Below the pieces are notes generated by a model. The model made no database searches. It saw nothing but the letters and a program-made list of their open reading frames with translations, and had not been told where the DNA came from. From positions 1 through 14,044 of the forward strand of contig CAYVGZ010000040.1 in assembly GCA_964450845.1 (NCBI GenBank): DNA of 14,044 bases, written 5' to 3'. Positions 1-12,368 of the stretch are shown here, one piece after another; position 1 is the stretch's first letter; each line of letters starts with the position of its first letter. Both the position numbers and the translations under genes were made by a program. This DNA is from an uncultured Candidatus Bathyarchaeia archaeon. Its GTDB lineage: Archaea; Thermoproteota; Bathyarchaeia; Bathyarchaeales; Bathycorpusculaceae.

Positions 1-551
1 TCATAAGAAAGAACAGCACCAGTCGGGTTATTCGGATAATTCAAAATCATCACACGTGACTTCTCCGTGATAAGTGACGTCACATCATCAATAGAAGGTT
101 TAAAGCCATTTTTCTCTAGCAATGGAACAGCAACGGGAACCCCACCAGCCAAAAGAACACAAGGCTCATAGCATACGAACCCTGGGTTCGGAATTAGAAC
201 CTCGTCACCTGGATTTATTAAAGCAATCAGCGCCGAAAAAATCGCTTCAGTACCGCCAACAGTTACTAGAATTTCAGAGTTTGGATCATAACTGAGATTA
301 TATTCACGATAAGCCTTTTGTGCCAGTGCCTCTCGAAGTTCAGGAACCCCATTGGTTGGTGCATAATGCGTTTTACCCTCTTTTGCTGCTAGCAATCCCG
401 CCTTCAATGCGTGTCTTGGAGGAGTAAAATCGGGTTCTCCTACGCTTAGGTTGATAACGTCGGGCATTTCTTGAGCTAAAGCGAAAAATCGGCGTATTCC
501 AGAGATTTTTACGCGTTTTAGACGTTCTGCAGGTTTAAATCTTGAAGCCAA
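1..551 (-). CDS. PLP-dependent class I aminotransferase (aspartate aminotransferase-like), 5' part, runs off the window start
   Basis: Hand translation from TTG at 551 (GGGGA upstream, in-frame stop just above): MASRFKPAERLKRVKISGIRRFFALAQEMPDVINLSVGEPDF...HYAPTNGVPELREA...VTVGGTEAI...LINPGDEVLIPNPGFVCY...ILNYPNNPTG. These are hallmark class I/II aminotransferase motifs. Absent from the ORF track because it has no stop in the window. Confidence 0.95.
   Translation of the reverse strand, partial: MASRFKPAERLKRVKISGIRRFFALAQEMPDVINLSVGEPDFTPPRHALKAGLLAAKEGKTHYAPTNGVPELREALAQKAYREYNLSYDPNSEILVTVGGTEAIFSALIALINPGDEVLIPNPGFVCYEPCVLLAGGVPVAVPLLEKNGFKPSIDDVTSLITEKSRVMILNYPNNPTGAVLSY
73..84. repeat. 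Near-perfect palindrome AGTGACGTCACA, a copy of the core of the 1176-1463 repeats, inside the aminotransferase gene
   Basis: 11/12 identity to TGTGACGTCACA at 1176-1187. Confidence 0.55.
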
Positions 552-700: not shown

Positions 701-1180
701 TTGAAGTTAAAGGAAGGCGTTCAATCGTGGTTAATGGGTTCTCAAAATGACCCCATTGCAAAAACACTCGTAAAAAATAGCCATTTGACAAAAACGCAGC
801 TAGAAACACTGCTTATTGACGTTTTATCTGAAAATATCGCAGGCAAACCACTAAAATACGATGAAAAAGCCAAATTAAGGTTAACAAAGGCAAAAATAAG
901 CCGCGGAGCCTTCAATAGGACTTTAAAACAAGCAAAAGAAAACATCACAAAATCGATTTATACCATACTACTCTTAGGGTACTTAGGGATCTTCGAAACT
1001 ACAACTCTTGACCCTTATCTAGAAATAGCCAACAAACTACAAGAATACATAGAAGCCTACAAGAACATGCCAAATAAAAGTGAAGAACTAGACGAACATC
1101 TGAAAATCATAGAAATGGTAAGAGAAGAGCTTGAAACAAGCCTAAAACAGCTCTCAAACTCTTCCCAGGGCGTTGTGTGA
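701..1180 (+). CDS. Conserved hypothetical protein with a probable HTH (Tfx/sigma-region-4-like), all-helical
   Basis: ORF 665..1180. Start more likely TTG 701 (or ATG 734) because a TATA-like TTTAAAAG at 639-646 would put the TSS past 665. Segment HLTKTQLETL...YDEKAKLR...ISRGAFNRTLKQAKENITKSIYTILLLGYLG resembles an HTH followed by a long helix. Confidence 0.8.
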   Translation: MKLKEGVQSWLMGSQNDPIAKTLVKNSHLTKTQLETLLIDVLSENIAGKPLKYDEKAKLRLTKAKISRGAFNRTLKQAKENITKSIYTILLLGYLGIFETTTLDPYLEIANKLQEYIEAYKNMPNKSEELDEHLKIIEMVREELETSLKQLSNSSQGVV

Positions 1181-1463
1181 CGTCACAAATCACATCAAAA
1201 GGTGAGCATTCGGCAGCAACAATAAACACACGCACAGCAACCAGTATAAAAAACGCTGAAAATCCAAAAACAGCCGAAAAATGAGGTTTTGGTGCATGCC
1301 AGTTGCTGTTTTAAGGTAATATGATGTTCTTTTTAAAGTGTGATGTGTGACATCATAGACTCCTTAAACAATGCAAATCTCCATAATCTTTATATCTCTT
1401 ATAGTAAAATTGTGATTTGTGATGCAACATGGGTGTATCGTTCGTAATCACATGTAAATCACA
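1176..1463. repeat. Cluster of three 19-bp repeats (consensus TGTGATNTGTGAYRYMAYA) plus a fourth variant site
   Basis: Site A (-) 1176-1194 TGTGATTTGTGACGTCACA. Site B (+) 1339-1357 TGTGATGTGTGACATCATA. Site C (+) 1411-1429 TGTGATTTGTGATGCAACA. Site D (-) 1446-1463 TGTGATTTACATGTGATT. Nine TGTGA/TCACA pentamers in about 290 bp. Confidence 0.85.
1389..1396 (+). promoter_or_regulatory. Archaeal TATA box for the membrane-anchored wHTH gene
   Basis: TTTATATC about 80 bp upstream of the start codon. The implied TSS (~1420) lies inside repeat site C. Confidence 0.55.
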
Positions 1464-1475
1464 GAGGTGCACTGT

Positions 1476-2189
1476 TTGGATGAGGTTATACTAATTCTTG
1501 CGGGTGTTTTGCTTGCCGTAACCGTTGGCGCCGCAATTAAGTATTATAAACAACTTGGAAGGGCTCAGCGAGAGTATGAAAAGGCTGAACAAGTTGTCGA
1601 GGACATTGTTTTGAGTTTTAATAGACAGATTAGGCAGGAAGCTAGTAAGTTAGAGCTTGTTGCATACAAGGTTGAGGCAGTTTCTTCAAAAAGTGATAAA
1701 GCTTTGATGAAGGCGGAAGAAGCAGATAAGAAATTGCTGTCGTTAGAAGGCAAAATTGACGTTACCTTAGGGGACAGAGAAAAGGTGTTAATGAGACTGG
1801 ATGAAATTGACAAAAAGGTGCGTGATACTGTTGTATCACAAGAGGTATTAACTGCCAAAATATCTGCGATCGAGGAACAATCCAGACAGCTTTCAATGTT
1901 TCCCGAAGCAAAAATTGAAGCAGTAATGCCCATAAAAAGAGAGAAAGTTTTAGCTCCCTTAACAGAGACCGAGCTATCTGTTCTGGAAATACTGTCTTTG
2001 GAAGGCCCTAAAACGGCGCCCGAAATTAAAGAAAAAATCAAGCTCAGCCGAGAGCACACGGCTAGGTTGATGAAAAAGCTTTACGAAAGTGGTTATCTGG
2101 AAAGAGAAACCAGCAAAATTCCTTTTAAGTATAGTGTTAAGAAAGAAATGGAAAAACTCTTGAGAAAAGCGGAAAGCGAAGCAACATAG
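1476..2189 (+). CDS. Single-pass membrane protein: N-terminal TM anchor, long coiled coil, C-terminal winged HTH (MarR-like)
   Basis: TM VILILAGVLLAVTVGAAI followed by basic KYYKQLGR. About 125 aa of E/K/L-rich heptad region. C-terminal LTETELSVLEILSLEGPKTAPEIKEKIKLSREHTARLMKKLYESGYLERETSKIPFKYSV is a wHTH. TTG 1476 has GAGGTG 6 nt upstream; the ORF track start is GTG 1467. Confidence 0.9.
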   Translation: MDEVILILAGVLLAVTVGAAIKYYKQLGRAQREYEKAEQVVEDIVLSFNRQIRQEASKLELVAYKVEAVSSKSDKALMKAEEADKKLLSLEGKIDVTLGDREKVLMRLDEIDKKVRDTVVSQEVLTAKISAIEEQSRQLSMFPEAKIEAVMPIKREKVLAPLTETELSVLEILSLEGPKTAPEIKEKIKLSREHTARLMKKLYESGYLERETSKIPFKYSVKKEMEKLLRKAESEAT

Positions 2190-2193
2190 CATA

Positions 2194-3738
2194 CTACGAA
2201 GAAGGAGGCTCCTGTTCGTTCAACCGTTTAAGTCGTTTCTCCATCTCTGAAAGGCTCTTTGATTCTGAAAGCCCATAGTCTTCCTTTCTCCTCTTGTCCA
2301 AGTAGTCTGGATAATGTGTGACCTTTATTGGTACAGCAAACCTGATTTTCGGCTCAGATATGAGCAATGCTTCGCCAACATCGAGCATTTTTATTTCCGT
2401 GTCACTATACTCTAAATAGGGCGTGTTTTCGGTCAGATATATTCTGTCCTTTCGCAACTCTGTCTTCATAATGACCTTGGTCCACAGTTCAGCGAAAACG
2501 TCAAAGTTAATCCTTGAAGGACGTGGTGTTACAGCGTTGAGTCCAACTCGGTATTTGCGGTATGTTAGGGCGATGTCTGAAAATATGGTTCTAGGCTTGT
2601 TTGGGTCAAGAAACTCGTGCGCCTCTTCAAGTGTTATGAGAAGCGTGGGCAGATTCTTCCATTCTTCATAATTTTCTTCCCACATGCATTTATAATGGTT
2701 TGCAACCGTTGAAGCCGTGAGGCAGGTGATTTTGTTTTGCTCCTCGGAGCTTATTCCTGAGATGTCTATAAGGCATGTTATTCCCTTACATACGTTCTGG
2801 GCAACGCTGTCAATGAAGCTGTAATCGGAAGCTGGGAAAATGTCGTGGGAAAGTGATGACAATTTAAGCATTAGGGCTTCAATCACGTGTTTCATCTTGT
2901 AGTCTGCGAGATGCCCTACCCCGGCGTGCCCTTCTGCCCCATAAACCTCTCTAGTTTCCTGAATCCAACTCTTGCCCAGCCTTTTGTAAAGTTTTCGAGC
3001 AAGCCGAAATTGAGGAAGACCTATGTCAGGAAACAGAGTAATAAGCCTCTCCGGGGTGATTGTGAATAAGCCCACAGTCATTTTTCCATCACGTGCGGAA
3101 TAATACTGGACCTTGCTGTGGAACAGTGGATGATCTTTTAGGCCTTTTTGCGGTTTAATCCCCTTGCCTTCAAGAAGCTGGCCGGCGAAGTCGAAAATGA
3201 GAGCCACTGTTTTAGGGCTGTTGTCAATGCTTTGTGCATTGAGAATTAGTTCGGTGTTTGTTTTCCCCGAGCCAGTCATTCCAAACATGCCCATCATTAG
3301 TGGTATGGCTTCAATATTTATGCCCGCTGACCCCAATAGTTGCTCTCCAGAGCGGAGGCATCCAACTTCTAGTTCCCCTGAGAGTTTGAGGATGGAACAG
3401 TCTTCTTCGCTAGCTGTGTACACTTTGTCTTTATAGTTTGGGTTGAAGGTTGGGGAGCGTCCTTTGCCAGCTCTCTTCTCTAAGAAGAGAATAGCTTCGA
3501 CGCTCCTGTAAGCTGAATACGGTCCGAAGGCTTCTTTGCCTTCTGCTTCACGCAGCTGCTCAATTGTGTCAAGTGTGGAGCTGCTCTCGGCGTTAACAAC
3601 CCTTGCGTAGAAGCCCCTCTCACCTGAATCTATTCGAACAATTTGTCCAAAAGAAAGATTGATTTCCTTGTTGAGAAAGAAAGATACGGAGTCTCCCTTC
3701 GTTCCACACACAAACCCTATAGGTTCAGAACTATTCAC
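2194..3738 (-). CDS. herA: HerA-like FtsK/HerA superfamily ATPase (HAS barrel + DUF87), divergent
   Basis: N-terminal HAS-barrel-like PIGFVCGT...FGQIVRI...YARVVN, Walker A GMTGSGKT, Walker B LLITLEEAHEF, YRKYRVGL arginine-finger region. Likely start GTG 3738, overlapping the nurA stop and preceded by GGAGTGGTGGA; the ORF track start is 3774. Confidence 0.88.
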   Translation of the reverse strand: MNSSEPIGFVCGTKGDSVSFFLNKEINLSFGQIVRIDSGERGFYARVVNAESSSTLDTIEQLREAEGKEAFGPYSAYRSVEAILFLEKRAGKGRSPTFNPNYKDKVYTASEEDCSILKLSGELEVGCLRSGEQLLGSAGINIEAIPLMMGMFGMTGSGKTNTELILNAQSIDNSPKTVALIFDFAGQLLEGKGIKPQKGLKDHPLFHSKVQYYSARDGKMTVGLFTITPERLITLFPDIGLPQFRLARKLYKRLGKSWIQETREVYGAEGHAGVGHLADYKMKHVIEALMLKLSSLSHDIFPASDYSFIDSVAQNVCKGITCLIDISGISSEEQNKITCLTASTVANHYKCMWEENYEEWKNLPTLLITLEEAHEFLDPNKPRTIFSDIALTYRKYRVGLNAVTPRPSRINFDVFAELWTKVIMKTELRKDRIYLTENTPYLEYSDTEIKMLDVGEALLISEPKIRFAVPIKVTHYPDYLDKRRKEDYGLSESKSLSEMEKRLKRLNEQEPPSS

Positions 3739-4744
3739 TCCACCACTCCCACTCGAACGCATGCTTAATTCCATGAAGCTCGTCAGCGAAGCTACATGAA
3801 AATTCTTCTCGGCGAAGTATTTCTAATAAGCCACTCTGGGCGAGTACATTCTCGACTTGATCGTGGTAAGAAAGAAGCATCGCATCGGAGGGTGCAGAGA
3901 AGTCGTGGGCAAGCCAAAGGGGGACAGGATATCCAAGACATCGGGGGTCTTCGGCTACTGCAGTCAAAGGAGAAAGGGTCTCGCTTACTTGTTGGTCTGT
4001 TAAGTATTCCATTATGTCACAACGAAAAACGCGGGAACTTCCTTCGCACAACCTAACAAGAGATATATCTCCATACAAGCTTTTGTCCTTGTCAGCTTCT
4101 CTGATTGGATGACAAACCCACGTATCATAAGGAGAGAGTATACTCGTAGTAGCTATTAGGTCTCTTCCTTTTTCATCATGAAGTGAGGGAGAGTTTTTGC
4201 TAACAGCGAGAAGGGTGATCCGATCTTTTTCACATTTCTCATAAAGTGCCACTCGGAATTTTCTTTCACCGCCGAAGTATCCGCCACCATCAAGTAAGAG
4301 ATAATTACTACGAGGATTAGTATGCTCGTAGTAGAAAAGGCTAGTTTTGTTCTGAAGAAGGTTAAGTGCCATTTGACTTTCTAACTCAATTCTTACATCT
4401 GTCAGAAAGTTACTACGAGTACGTGCATTACCAACTACAGTGCATATTCTTTCCTGATAGCCCCAATCAATATTGCGCTCTTTAACTGAGGCATACGCTA
4501 CTCGCATTAGGTAGATTCCCCAGTTGTTTGCCCTCTTGAGTGTTCTTGTCGAACAATCAACGGCAACGAACCCTCCTAGAAATTCGCTGATTTTTTTCAA
4601 GGGCTTTATTAAAGCCGCATCTGGTTTGACCGATATCATTGGCTCTTCTTTCACTTCAACTGCTCCAGCAACTCTTCCTTTGTCTATGTAAAACTTGAGT
4701 TTCTTCTCCATTTCAGCAAAGTCTGTCTTGATATTGCTGCTCAT
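3731..4744 (-). CDS. nurA: NurA-domain nuclease (RNase H-like fold)
   Basis: VAVDCS (first catalytic D), IELESQMA (E), LLLDGG (D) and C-terminal LGYPVPLWLAH typical of NurA. GGAGG RBS at 4751-4755. Directly upstream of the HerA-like gene. Confidence 0.85.
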   Translation of the reverse strand: MSSNIKTDFAEMEKKLKFYIDKGRVAGAVEVKEEPMISVKPDAALIKPLKKISEFLGGFVAVDCSTRTLKRANNWGIYLMRVAYASVKERNIDWGYQERICTVVGNARTRSNFLTDVRIELESQMALNLLQNKTSLFYYEHTNPRSNYLLLDGGGYFGGERKFRVALYEKCEKDRITLLAVSKNSPSLHDEKGRDLIATTSILSPYDTWVCHPIREADKDKSLYGDISLVRLCEGSSRVFRCDIMEYLTDQQVSETLSPLTAVAEDPRCLGYPVPLWLAHDFSAPSDAMLLSYHDQVENVLAQSGLLEILRREEFSCSFADELHGIKHAFEWEWWSE

Positions 4745-4862: not shown

Positions 4863-5291
4863 TCAGGGTATTTCCTGTTTAACTATAGCTTGCGGAAAAC
4901 TTGCCAGTTTGTATTTCAAGCGATTAGAAGCCCCAGCTTTCACTAGTACTCCTTTGTTCGCCATTCTGGCAAAATACGTGGCCACGGTGCTGAGACTTAT
5001 CGGTTCTTTGAATTCCTGTTCGTAGGCTGATTGGATCTCTCTTGAAGAGAACCAGACCATGGGAAAGTGTTTCTGGATCAGCATGCGAACTTTTTCGTAT
5101 TTAGAGACCCAATTGCCTGCAACCATTGGATTGCCTTCAGAGTTTCCGGCGCTACTTGACACTCCGCCCAACAATTCTACCAAATCCAAAAGGCGAACAG
5201 CCTTTTCCCGAGTTATTTGCCCTTCAAAGGACACAGTATATTTATTACCTTCACTATCGAACAGCTCAACACGCATCTTTCTTGCGGGCAT
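4863..5291 (-). CDS. Origin-adjacent two-domain protein: small N-terminal beta-alpha domain plus C-terminal winged HTH
   Basis: MPARKMRVELFDSEGNKYTVSFEGQITREKAVRLLDLVELL, then a linker, then KVRMLIQKHFPMVWFSSREIQSAYEQEFKEPISLSTVATYFARMANKGVLVKAG..RLKYKL (wHTH pattern). Transcribed divergently from cdc6 across the origin. Confidence 0.85.
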   Translation of the reverse strand: MPARKMRVELFDSEGNKYTVSFEGQITREKAVRLLDLVELLGGVSSSAGNSEGNPMVAGNWVSKYEKVRMLIQKHFPMVWFSSREIQSAYEQEFKEPISLSTVATYFARMANKGVLVKAGASNRLKYKLASFPQAIVKQEIP

Positions 5292-5487
5292 CAGCAATCT
5301 ACACCGTAGCTGGTGTTCACACTTTACAGTTCACAAGTTATAGCTATTACGGTGAAAAAGTAATAAGTAAAAACGTCATAGCAAGCCTCAAAGAAGAAAA
5401 CACCAAAAAATTGCAGAGGTTTTTACTTTACAACCGTCACAGTTTTTCTAAACAGGAAATAAGCAAAAGACAGCCATTATGTTGGTA

Positions 5488-5509
5488 TCTCCAGTAGAAG
5501 GGAAGGGGT
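5488..5509 (+). promoter_or_regulatory. ORB (origin recognition box)
   Basis: TCTCCAGTAGAAGGGAAGGGGT matches the TTCCAGTGGAAAC-G-string ORB pattern. Confidence 0.75.
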
Positions 5510-5756
5510 GGCTTTTTCACAGAAAAAAGACATAAAGAAGTTAATACCGAGTAAAACAAAACCCAAAAAGACGCAGTCTCAAGTTAACTTCACATAATCT
5601 TCTCAACCGTGTGAAATTATCTAACAGATTGGAAAAAGGTATTTTTCCACTAACCTTCGAAACTAGCAAAGGAGCCTTTAAGTCTAAATAAAAACAGAAA
5701 GTAAAGAAGCAAAAACGTAGCTTAAAATTATTGAATAAGAAAAAAAGAAAGCGTCA

Positions 5757-5777
5757 CCCCTTAGTTTCCAATGGAAC
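5757..5777 (-). promoter_or_regulatory. Canonical ORB, left of the DUE
   Basis: Reverse complement GTTCCATTGGAAACTAAGGGG: near-consensus dyad plus G-string. Confidence 0.9.
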
Positions 5778-5799
5778 AGGGTAAACTTTTGCCGTTATC

Positions 5800-5925
5800 G
5801 ATTATTTTAGAGAGTATTCATCTAAAAAATTTTACAAAAATTATTATAATACATTTTTTATTCTTAGTTTTTAGAGTATAATTTAATTTTTAAGTTAATG
5901 CTATAACTATTCTTCATCCAAACAG
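5800..5925. other. AT-rich DNA unwinding element (DUE)
   Basis: 5821-5900 has only 9 G/C in 80 nt and lies between two inversely oriented ORBs. Confidence 0.8.
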
Positions 5926-5927
5926 TT

Positions 5928-5948
5928 TTCTACAGGAAATTTGGGGGT
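5928..5948 (+). promoter_or_regulatory. ORB, right of the DUE
   Basis: TTCTACAGGAAATTTGGGGGT: degenerate dyad plus G5 string, inverted relative to the 5757-5777 ORB. Confidence 0.7.
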
Positions 5949-6090
5949 GTGGCTATGGTCCTTAAGCTTTTTGTCTTCAGGCTTTCGGTTTTCTTTTAGT
6001 TTTCTTGCGCCACTAATTTAGTTTTTTGTATGGCAGAACTTATTTTCTGAAGAAAAAACAAAGCGTTACCTTTGCTTAAGAGGAATTACA

Positions 6091-7341
6091 ATGAGCGATA
6101 CTAATGTGCTTGACGATGTGTTCAAAAAATCTTTTAACAACATAAATATTTTTCAGGATAGAGAGGTTCTACGGCACGACTATCTGCCAGATACGTTACC
6201 GCACCGAGATGAACAGATTAGGCAGATCGGCGAAACTATGGCGCCCGTTCTAAAAGGAGCGAGAGGTTCTAACGTTTTTATTTATGGAAAAACTGGAACT
6301 GGAAAGACAGCTGTAACAAAACATGTGCTCAGCCATCTTGAGGTTAAAGCAAAGGAATTTAATGCACCTGTTAAGTTCTGTTACGTGAACTGCCGTTTAG
6401 CAGGAACTGAGTATCGCGTTTTTGCTAGTTTATGTCAAAGAATAGGCAAATCTGTTCCTTTTACAGGGCTATCTGTTGGGGAAGTTTTTGACAGATTCCA
6501 AGCAGGGTTGGATGACTCCAAGATTATATTTATCATAGTTTTGGACGAAATCGACGCTTTGATCAAAGCACATGGTGATAACCTTCTCTATGAACTAACA
6601 AGAATAAATGAAACCTTGCACGAGAGCAAGGTATCTCTCACTGGCATATCCAATGACCTACGGCTGAAAGAGCTTCTTGATCCTCGAGTTTTTAGTTCAC
6701 TTAGTGAAGAAGAGATTGTTTTTAGTCCCTACGATGCTAGTGAATTAAAAAATATCCTTTTTGAGCGTGGCAAATTGGCGTTCCATGACGGTGCTTTGTC
6801 TGATGGCGCTTTGAGTATTTGTGCGGCTTTAGCCGCTGCGGAGCATGGTGATGCGAGACGGGCATTGGATTTGCTACGAGTTGCTGGTGAAGTTGCTGAG
6901 CGAAAAGGTGCGAGCACTGTAATTGAGGAACATGTTCGGGAGGCAGAGAAACACATTGAACACAACCGTGTTATTGAGGCTCTCCAAAATTTGCCTTTAC
7001 ACTCAAAACTCGTGGTCTTAAGTATTCACCACCTAAGAGAAGCAGATGCCAACCGGGTCATTACTGGCGAGATTTATGAAGTTTATAGTGAGCTTTGTGG
7101 AGAATTAGGCGTCACTCCATTAACCCAACGTCGGTCAAGCACGCTGGTGAATGAACTTGATTCTATGGGACTGTTGAATTCGAAAATCGTAAGCATGGGG
7201 AGGTATGGACGTACGAAGAAGATTAGGTTGGAGATAACGCGCACTCTTATTAGAGATGTGTTCGCTAATGACAGCAGGCTTGGACGTTTGATTGTTTATG
7301 CGCCGAAATGCCTTTCAAAACCTGCAAATAGTAGGAGTTGA
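6091..7341 (+). CDS. cdc6: Orc1/Cdc6 replication initiator
   Basis: FQDREVLRHDYLPDTLPHRDEQI, Walker A GKTGTGKT, YVNCR, Walker B IIVLDEID, GDARRALDLLR, C-terminal wH domain ending GRYGRTKKI. Confidence 0.98.
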   Translation: MSDTNVLDDVFKKSFNNINIFQDREVLRHDYLPDTLPHRDEQIRQIGETMAPVLKGARGSNVFIYGKTGTGKTAVTKHVLSHLEVKAKEFNAPVKFCYVNCRLAGTEYRVFASLCQRIGKSVPFTGLSVGEVFDRFQAGLDDSKIIFIIVLDEIDALIKAHGDNLLYELTRINETLHESKVSLTGISNDLRLKELLDPRVFSSLSEEEIVFSPYDASELKNILFERGKLAFHDGALSDGALSICAALAAAEHGDARRALDLLRVAGEVAERKGASTVIEEHVREAEKHIEHNRVIEALQNLPLHSKLVVLSIHHLREADANRVITGEIYEVYSELCGELGVTPLTQRRSSTLVNELDSMGLLNSKIVSMGRYGRTKKIRLEITRTLIRDVFANDSRLGRLIVYAPKCLSKPANSRS

Positions 7342-11077: not shown

Positions 11078-12298
11078 TTAGAAGGGGAGTTTACCTATTT
11101 TTTGTGGTGCTTTGGCCAATGAAACATGTTCACTCATTCTTAATTCAATGGTATACTGTACCTCGCCACTTATTTGACAATCAGATTCGATTGTGATACT
11201 TTCACCGTAAATGTTTTCTGCATATGCTCCGCTTCTTAGAAAAATCCTTTTTCCATAGATATTTTCTGCGCGCGCATCTCGTCCAATAATGACTTGTTCA
11301 GCCTTTACAGATCCGCGAACTTCACCTCTTCTTCCTATTTCAATAAACCTCGCAGTCACGCCGTCAACAGTTGTTATTGATCCACCCACTTCTACACTCT
11401 CTTCAACAGTGGCTTTTCTTGAACGTATTACGCCGCCGACTTCGATGTTTTTTGTTGCCAAATCTCCGTCGATTTCTGCTTTACCTCCCACTTCTAGGTT
11501 TCCAGAAAGTTTTAACGACCCGCCGATTTCTACTCTTCCTCCTACGTCCATTTCGTCACCTTCGCCTGAACCTGTTATCTCTACTCTTCCTCCTACGTCA
11601 ATTTCTCCAAACTCTAAATCTCCTTCAACCCGAAATGAGCCTCCTACATCTATTTTTCCGCCCTTGTTTTTACCATTAAGCCGAACGGTTCCACCAACAT
11701 CTATGCTTTCAAATTCTAGTGGGCTATTTGATTCAAAACTTCCTCCTACGTCAATTTCTTGGATTGTCCCGCCGGTAACTTTTGCTGCCCCTCCTACATC
11801 CAATTTTGTTATGTTCACTTTAGACTCGATTGAAACACTGCCTCCCACATCGATTTTCTCTGCCTTCGTTTCTCCTTTGGCTTTAAAGCTTCCGCCAACA
11901 TCTATGTTTTCGGCTTTTACATTCCCATCAACTTTTACGCTTCCGCCAACATCAACTTCCTCAACTGTCAGATCCTTGTTTACGTATAGGGCTTCGTCGA
12001 CATCTATGTGCCGTGCAGTCATGTTCCCGTACACTTCTAGGCGCCCTTCTTCGACTTCAACTCTGTTTGTTATTTGTAGGTCTCCATGGATTGTCACGTT
12101 ATCCTCTGCTTCTAGGTTTTCCGCCAAAACGTTGCACTCAAAGGTGTTGCCTCCTTCGCAGTAAATGGTTCCAGAAACTTTCACTGTTGGCGGTTTACCT
12201 GTTCCGTTTATTGTTGAATGTCTGCCTACTAGTAAGTCTCCTTCAACATGGTCTATTGTTGTTGTGCTTCCTGGTGAAGTGGATGTTTTGCTATTCAT
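11078..12298 (-). CDS. Bactofilin-like (polymer-forming cytoskeletal) beta-helix repeat protein, about 406 aa
   Basis: Twelve ~17-aa repeats centred on [DE]VGG with alternating V/I/G. Start ATG 12298 has a GGAGG RBS; the ORF track start is 12349. Confidence 0.75.
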   Translation of the reverse strand: MNSKTSTSPGSTTTIDHVEGDLLVGRHSTINGTGKPPTVKVSGTIYCEGGNTFECNVLAENLEAEDNVTIHGDLQITNRVEVEEGRLEVYGNMTARHIDVDEALYVNKDLTVEEVDVGGSVKVDGNVKAENIDVGGSFKAKGETKAEKIDVGGSVSIESKVNITKLDVGGAAKVTGGTIQEIDVGGSFESNSPLEFESIDVGGTVRLNGKNKGGKIDVGGSFRVEGDLEFGEIDVGGRVEITGSGEGDEMDVGGRVEIGGSLKLSGNLEVGGKAEIDGDLATKNIEVGGVIRSRKATVEESVEVGGSITTVDGVTARFIEIGRRGEVRGSVKAEQVIIGRDARAENIYGKRIFLRSGAYAENIYGESITIESDCQISGEVQYTIELRMSEHVSLAKAPQKIGKLPF

Positions 12299-12368
12299 AC
12301 AATATCCTCCATTTGAGTCTATATTCACTGATTTAAAAGGGAAACTCACGTTTTGTGACTACTCTTTG

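Follow-up and report, generated by a model that had tools for sequence, protein, structure and literature searches.

The locus and its gene order

The window analysed here is the whole of a 14,044-bp contig (C40) from a 1.64-Mb bathyarchaeial MAG that is 93% complete and has a G+C content of 41%. It opens with an aminotransferase gene (3-551, minus strand) and orf171 (701-1180, plus strand; 159 aa counted from the conserved start), and the repeats that are the subject of this work occupy the region between orf171 and the gene for a 237-aa MarR/TrmB-type protein (1476-2189, plus strand). This last protein, for which a TM segment, a long helix or coiled coil, a linker and a wHTH domain are predicted in that order, is our proposed binder of the repeats and is referred to below as the TM-wHTH protein. 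Beyond it lie HerA (2194-3774) and NurA (3731-4744), both on the minus strand, and wHTH144, a small wHTH protein (4863-5297, minus strand), followed by the AT-rich, ORB-bearing oriC (about 5480-5960) and by orc1/cdc6 (6091-7341). An EndoV-like gene, the PolD small subunit, DUF429 and PhoU complete the order past orc1/cdc6. The herA-nurA pair (2194-4744) is absent from about one-third of the order's syntenic loci, where the TM-wHTH gene abuts wHTH144 and oriC; as an optional insert, it is not considered part of the core of the module.

Sequence and layout of the repeat sites

The full repeat unit, a triad, measures 19 bp and consists of three GTGA half-sites spaced at a 7-bp pitch, with the consensus TGTGAyn-TGTGAyr-TCAyr. 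Site A (1176-1194, minus strand; TGTGATT-TGTGACG-TCACA), within which the TGA stop codon of orf171 falls, joins a perfect palindrome, TGTGACGTCACA, to a third half-site 7 bp off. Site B (1339-1357, plus strand) is also a triad and ends 31 bp before the TATA box of the downstream gene, and site C (1411-1429, plus strand), with two heptads and a degenerate third half-site, starts 16 bp past that box. Site D (1447-1463, minus strand) is made up of two ATCAC(A) units 11 bp apart, a spacing that occurs twice in the genome; it lies in the 5' UTR and abuts a Shine-Dalgarno-like GAGGTG, which is followed in turn by the TTG start codon at 1476. The first-pass annotation had these four sites and their reading exactly right, including the 11-bp spacing of D, and its description of two TGTGA units 7 bp apart in each of A to C, with a perfect palindrome in A, agrees with the sequence.

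The array so described had overlooked a fifth full site. Site E (66-84, plus strand; cGTGATA-aGTGACG-TCACA) is a complete 19-bp triad inside the aminotransferase coding sequence, about 620 bp upstream of orf171 and about 1.1 kb upstream of site A. It is adjoined, in the same coding sequence, by a palindrome of two GTGA half-sites, E' (50-59; TCACACGTGA). In A, B, C and E alike, direct TGTGAYN units thus recur every 7 bp, with at most three contiguous heptads in any one site and gaps of 18-1090 bp between sites.

The pentamers TGTGA/TCACA are strongly concentrated here, with 9 of the 32 in the window falling in 1176-1463. Counted over both strands, the genome has 1.6 of them per kb, from which 0.46 would be expected in these 288 bp (about 2e-9 per segment of this length by a Poisson estimate), and our recount bears out the earlier figure of nine where fewer than one is expected by chance.

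A single locus in the genome

The tandem form TGTGANNTGTGA has four copies in the 1.64-Mb genome, three of them in the array. The strict pattern GTGA-N3-GTGA-N2-TCA matches three times, always on this contig, against one match for a control pattern. In a genome scan with a position matrix, the four best matches are A (31.7 bits), E (29.4), B (28.3) and C (16.5), followed by a next best of 13.1; the scores are inflated because the matrix was trained on sites selected by a regular expression, but the ranking is nevertheless clear. Since the four top matches are sites of the array, a global regulon is ruled out. All high-scoring sites fall within about 1.4 kb, at 4 to 5.4 kb from the ORB-bearing oriC. 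Five other genomes each have three matches to the tandem heptad at the locus, with matches elsewhere no commoner than those to control patterns.

The first-pass annotation held that its proposal would fall if the motif were absent upstream of orthologues or were bound by an unrelated global regulator. The motif is present upstream of orthologues and has no other promoter targets in the genome, and a global regulator with many ordinary promoter targets was rejected as the binder.

Conservation of the array

Upstream regions were aligned for 20 loci of the same family, in which the identity of the downstream protein ranges from 89% down to about 50%. Discrete blocks are kept, corresponding to A, B, the BRE/TATA element, C and D, whereas the 140-bp spacer between A and B has diverged. 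Such conservation of blocks without conservation of spacers is the mark of a protein-binding footprint and not of an RNA gene. Site A keeps its position in 18 of the 20 loci and also in other families, site B is kept in 18, at -107 to -133 relative to the start, site C in all 20, and site D across the order. The positions of the array around the BRE/TATA element are maintained in orthologous loci of 33 relatives, the same site plan recurs in other families of the order, and GTGAYRTCAC palindromes are found upstream of the wHTH gene both in this order and in others.

Among 41 relatives, the strict pattern is present in 36, which are the same genomes as those with orf171, and control patterns give 0-2 matches. 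The TM-wHTH gene was detected in 34 of the 36 pattern-bearing genomes; in G031, one of the other two, orf171 is located at a contig end. The downstream protein itself has a single orthologue in 34 of the 41. The array is a real and deeply conserved set of cis elements, which occurs once in the genome, beside oriC.

Site E is found in the same place in most syntenic loci. In two loci from two genera (L036 and L039), where a different gene stands in place of the aminotransferase gene, non-coding DNA 380-480 bp upstream of orf171 still contains an E-type site. Module-less genomes contain only aminotransferase paralogues of 36-42% identity and no orthologues, and variation at third codon positions and the intergenic loci were analysed instead. 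When 13 aminotransferase orthologues are compared, nowhere in the fragment is the entropy at third codon positions lower than in the E/E' stretch; the third positions of the E' codons TCA-CGT-GTG are nearly invariant, and the amino acid at the centre of the palindrome varies (T, M or R). The constraint on third positions, together with survival in the non-coding DNA of two genera, argues that site E is a DNA element in its own right and not a by-product of the coding sequence.

The pattern of conservation also bears on whether the blocks might work as RNA, in the form of a structured 5' UTR or small RNA, or as recombination sites around an invertible orf171 segment. Either role is scarcely credible. 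Site D does lie in the 5' UTR beside the ribosome-binding site, but no RNA family was found in 1176-1463 by Rfam at the gathering threshold or by ARAGORN run on the window, the half-site blocks alone are kept and not the spacers, and sites occur on both strands and also upstream of the promoter. Sites E and A are mutually inverted around orf171, as recombination sites might be; however, no recombinase is encoded nearby and the orientation of orf171 is constant in all loci of the order, and a role for the inverted pair in inversion or recombination was rejected on these grounds.

The TM-wHTH protein

Residues 165-224 of the downstream protein match the Pfam families MarR (2.6e-8) and TrmB (8.2e-7). 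At the N terminus, a hydrophobic 19-mer with a mean Kyte-Doolittle score of 1.9-2.7 is found in all 24 aligned orthologues and is predicted to be a TM helix; it is followed in all 24 by net positive charge, from which a cytoplasmic C terminus is predicted. The AlphaFold2 model (pLDDT 83) comprises a continuous helix (2-139), a disordered linker (140-155) and a winged helix (164-221). The protein is thus predicted to have an N-terminal TM helix that leads into a helical stalk of about 115 residues, with a flexible linker joining this stalk to a cytoplasmic winged helix of MarR/TrmB type. The fold neighbours of the wHTH domain are MarR and ArsR proteins, and AspA (5k5q, E 1.6e-3) also appears as a non-specific wHTH match. 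A sequence search of the PDB with the TM-wHTH profile returned coiled-coil proteins, one weak MarR entry and nothing else.

The recognition helix is invariant as R-E-H-T-x-R and, in the form S/T-REH-T/V-x-R, extends from Bathyarchaeia to Nitrosopumilaceae, while the sequence of the stalk is variable. In one homologue (L058, G089:C12), the REH helix and the upstream GTGAYRTCAC palindromes are kept, and the N-terminal TM segment is apparently absent; this is possibly a soluble variant, which bears on the membrane-tether reading considered below. Literature searches found no publications on this protein family or on the motif.

Candidate binders of the sites

The locus has genes for three putative DNA binders, and E and A bracket orf171. 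An alternative is thus that the array is bound by orf171, by wHTH144 or by a factor encoded elsewhere, with the TM-wHTH gene a regulated target and nothing more. We consider this unlikely. The product of orf171 is an all-alpha protein, present in 164 of 201 sampled Bathyarchaeia genomes, that has a sigma-70 region 4-like sequence pattern and gave one weak Sigma70_r4 lead in an Atlas search (score 0.79; 14% of cluster members), the other matches there being clusters of 'hypothetical protein'. Against this, neither family nor fold matches point to DNA binding: scans of the window proteins gave no Pfam or NCBIfam family for orf171, its AlphaFold2 model (pLDDT 80) has no Foldseek PDB match at E<=0.001, and a VIA-wide structure search returned generic helical-hairpin matches only (residues 100-159, Z<=8.1).

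The more telling comparison is provided by five Bathyarchaeia genomes (94-100% complete) in which orf171, wHTH144 and orc1 are present and the TM-wHTH gene is nowhere to be found. The strict pattern is missing from four of the five and has two scattered matches in the other, and in none of them does a matrix match, that is, an A-type site, follow orf171. The motif thus tracks the TM-wHTH gene and not the other local candidates for DNA binding, although the link is correlative and this set of 'natural knockouts', at five genomes, is a small sample. A further point against wHTH144 comes from the origin beside it, where TGTGAA predominates (93%), whereas the array uses TGTGAY (89%).

The orf171 protein has an invariant core, SRGAFNRTL...LLLGYLG, and is more diverged in Nitrosopumilaceae. 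Its gene is nearly always found beside the origin and, in 20 loci of other orders, is usually within a few kb of wHTH144 and orc1.

Promoter overlap and proposed autoregulation

A BRE/TATA-like promoter core, CCATAATC followed by TTTATAT, is located at 1381-1395 on the plus strand, and from archaeal promoter architecture we infer that it acts as the promoter of the TM-wHTH gene. The 20 aligned upstream regions retain the promoter block ACCATAAnCTTTAAAT, which precedes site C by 16 bp. With its start at that distance past a kept TATA box, site C would cover the predicted transcription start. The first-pass annotation had claimed that the array overlaps a promoter and that C lies on the predicted start, and the kept element lends support to both statements. 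The layout is the one expected of an autoregulatory operator, with the gene of a putative regulator directly downstream, site C after the core promoter and site D in the 5' UTR.

On sequence grounds, the repeats are probably dedicated operators of the downstream TM-wHTH protein, through which it would autoregulate its own gene; we put the probability of this reading at about 0.6. What is established is where the sites are, that they are conserved and unique to this locus, how they are placed relative to the kept promoter, and that they co-occur with the TM-wHTH gene; which protein binds, and whether each site serves activation or repression, we infer. The reading also draws on the recognition helix, which is invariant alongside an invariant half-site. 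The site positions relative to the TATA box call to mind TrmBL1, an archaeal wHTH protein of the TrmB/MarR type that recognizes TATCAC-N5-GTGATA, the Thermococcales glycolytic motif, and represses when bound downstream of the TATA box and activates when bound upstream (PMC4706686). It is this positional logic, together with the shared GTGAT/ATCAC half-site, that leads us to read the array as an autoregulatory operator set. The two proteins differ in several respects: TrmBL1 is a soluble sugar sensor with dozens of targets in the genome, whereas the TM-wHTH protein is predicted to be membrane-anchored, has no sensor domain and has one target locus. The sites also differ, with 7-bp-pitch triads and direct repeats here and a single N5-spaced palindrome for TrmBL1.

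In the proposed mechanism, the winged helices of the TM-wHTH protein would recognize GTGAY half-sites, arranged either as a GTGAYRTCAC palindrome with a third half-site 7 bp away (E, A, B and C) or as direct repeats 11 bp apart (D). Occupation of C, at the transcription start, and of D, in the 5' UTR, would block the recruitment of RNA polymerase, and B, upstream of the BRE/TATA element, could stimulate transcription or stabilize the complex, such that C, D and B together would bring about autoregulation of the TM-wHTH gene. Sites E and A bracket orf171, which looping would probably bring into the same nucleoprotein complex.

Several considerations weigh against this operator reading. The co-occurrence of sites and gene is expected of any cis element of that gene, whichever protein binds it. 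A half-site pitch of 7 bp from centre to centre leaves little room for a classical wHTH dimer, and no stoichiometry readily suggests itself for a unit of three half-sites. Finally, E and A are 1.4 and 0.3 kb from the promoter, and plain autoregulation needs neither. As the sole targets flank the protein's own gene and there is no evident output, regulation may not be the whole function of the TM-wHTH protein. Were autoregulation all that there is, this would still be an unusual case of a membrane-tethered regulator without a regulon.

The origin and its own repeats

The intergenic region of oriC (5298-6090) has its own conserved class of repeat, TTCACA/TGTGAA, which is also found in L021-L040. 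Examples are a TTCACA/TGTGAA pair at 5316-5335, next to the start of wHTH144, a TTCACAG at about 5516, directly after an ORB, and a TTCACA-N6-TTCACA-N3-TGTGAA group at about 5589-5615. These may be sites of wHTH144 or of another origin factor.

The first-pass annotation had also called the array iteron-like, which would make the repeats replication elements, that is, binding sites of the initiator or an accessory factor and part of the origin. The array is close to oriC, and TGTGA pentamers are enriched in the oriC intergenic region as well (7.2 per kb compared with 1.8 per kb elsewhere). Nevertheless, the idea is very improbable and that label has been dropped. The ORB elements and the AT-rich core are 4 kb off, at about 5480-5960, and the array, which sits on a gene promoter, lies outside this region. 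Its motif differs both from the ORB and from the origin repeats: of 99 TGTGA occurrences at the origin, 93% are followed by A, and of 150 in the array, 89% are followed by a pyrimidine (C or T). Moreover, the array is absent where orc1 and oriC are kept but the TM-wHTH gene is missing.

A possible link between origin and membrane

To our knowledge, the organization and segregation of chromosomes are largely unexplored in archaea beyond Sulfolobus and the haloarchaea. A more ambitious interpretation of the array is that its main role is as a centromere-like element or origin-to-membrane anchor, with the membrane protein binding a single cluster beside oriC and so pinning or positioning the origin at the envelope; autoregulation would then be a by-product, as at plasmid parS sites. 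We regard this as a tentative possibility. In its favour, a TM anchor and a cytoplasmic wHTH on a long stalk are predicted in one protein, all high-scoring sites are gathered in about 1.4 kb at 4 to 5.4 kb from oriC (judging from the gene map, about 1-2 kb in loci that lack herA-nurA), the sites reach into and past neighbouring genes, and the gene order linking module and oriC is kept across the order, in most of the class and in Nitrosopumilaceae. Functional precedents exist in RicO/ricS of S. aureus (bioRxiv 10.64898/2026.03.06.710092) and in the sites of AspA and SegB (PMC5120986). On the other hand, the 14-kb window has no gene for a ParA/SegA-type ATPase or adaptor, and the sites are confined to about 1.4 kb and not spread over the origin domain. 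In addition, the L058 homologue apparently has no TM segment, orc1 was not found within 19 kb of the module in one family (L041, L044 and L057), and the kept synteny could be explained by simple inheritance. Pfam and NCBIfam scans of the window proteins, in which small ORFs were partly covered, contained no RHH or ParA families, and neither the window nor the syntenic loci examined contain a Walker ParA-type gene, the neighbours being orf171, an optional HerA-NurA pair, wHTH144 and Orc1.

Among known partition systems, the array recalls the type Ib heptad parS of pSM19035, where the RHH ParB protein omega binds WATCACW heptads in runs of 7-10 contiguous units, at least four of which are needed for ParA activation (PMC9499535). 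The two share a 7-bp pitch, a near-identical unit (WATCACW there and NRTCACA here), the presence of direct and inverted units and an overlap with a promoter, through which the partition site doubles as an operator in the plasmid. They differ in that contiguous units number three at most here, the inverted pair abuts (GTGAYRTCAC), and no RHH protein or ParA is encoded adjacently, the likely binder being a wHTH protein. AspA of pNOB8 and SegB are dimeric, site-specific archaeal centromere binders with palindromes just upstream of their own genes (PMC5120986). The palindromic site upstream of the gene of the candidate binder is similar, and AspA is a wHTH protein that appears among the fold neighbours. 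However, AspA and SegB belong to operons with ParB/ParA or SegA ATPases, none of which is found here, and neither is membrane-anchored, as the TM-wHTH protein is predicted to be.

RicO, like the prediction for the TM-wHTH protein, combines a DNA-binding domain and a membrane-targeting element in one polypeptide, and in both cases the sites are origin-proximal only. There is no homology between the two; RicO uses an amphipathic helix where a TM anchor is predicted here, and the sites of the array are gathered in one 1.4-kb cluster at the promoter of the putative binder itself. Another bacterial origin-to-membrane anchor is RacA with its ram sites.

Whichever role applies, the analysis defines a concrete cis/trans pair, consisting of a cluster of sites found once in the genome and a predicted membrane-anchored DNA-binding protein beside oriC. 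If origin tethering proved true, it would amount to a new kind of archaeal centromere.

Depth of the module and its link to oriC

The order orf171 - TM-wHTH - wHTH144 - oriC - orc1 - polD-small is found across the order, in most of the class and in Nitrosopumilaceae. When the phylum was searched with a profile, related genes turned up well beyond Bathyarchaeia, and the gene order recurs in other classes. The Nitrosopumilaceae homologues, which include NZNM25_17740 of N. zosterae, NADRNF5_0070 of N. adriaticus and one in N. maritimus, are annotated merely as 'winged helix/MarR' or hypothetical, and retain the TM segment and the REH recognition helix. In all six Nitrosopumilaceae loci, the densest 300-bp cluster of GTGAY is at or just upstream of the start of the homologue, with 8-12 half-sites against a mean of 1.2-1.5, the enrichment being measured within the retrieved loci, and in four of the six a D-like TCAC-N6-TCAC pair is located just before the start codon. 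The location beside oriC has thus been kept through a very deep divergence, cultured Nitrosopumilus species being among those that have it.

From this distribution, it can be conjectured that the module is an ancient origin-positioning device common to Bathyarchaeia and the ammonia-oxidizing Nitrososphaeria, in effect a ParA-independent analogue of a centromere that would couple the origin to the membrane, possibly with orf171 and wHTH144 as partners. We put this forward with some reserve and continue to favour the operator reading set out above.

Two observations concern the linkage to the origin. In one Bathyarchaeia family (L041, L044 and L057), orf171 and the TM-wHTH gene adjoin polD-small and EndoV, and orc1 was not found at distances of up to 19 kb; perhaps the module is no longer linked to the origin there, or perhaps the initiator has diverged or been relocated. 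In one MAG (G120; L054 on C1 and L055 on C11), orf171 is present twice, and each copy has a wHTH144 - orc1 - polD-small cluster of its own a few kb away. Either this genome has two origins or the bin combines two strains; its contamination is about 3%.

Other features of the window

At 11078-12349, the window encodes a 423-aa bactofilin-like protein with many [DE]VGG repeats, which is matched by Pfam Bactofilin in three stretches; a long ORF that runs antisense to it (11289-12164) is apparently an artefact of the repeats in this gene. At the contig end, 13917-14041 has an Rfam tRNA match of 47.5 bits that covers 125 nt against a 71-position model and has no counterpart from ARAGORN. It is probably an intron-containing archaeal tRNA.
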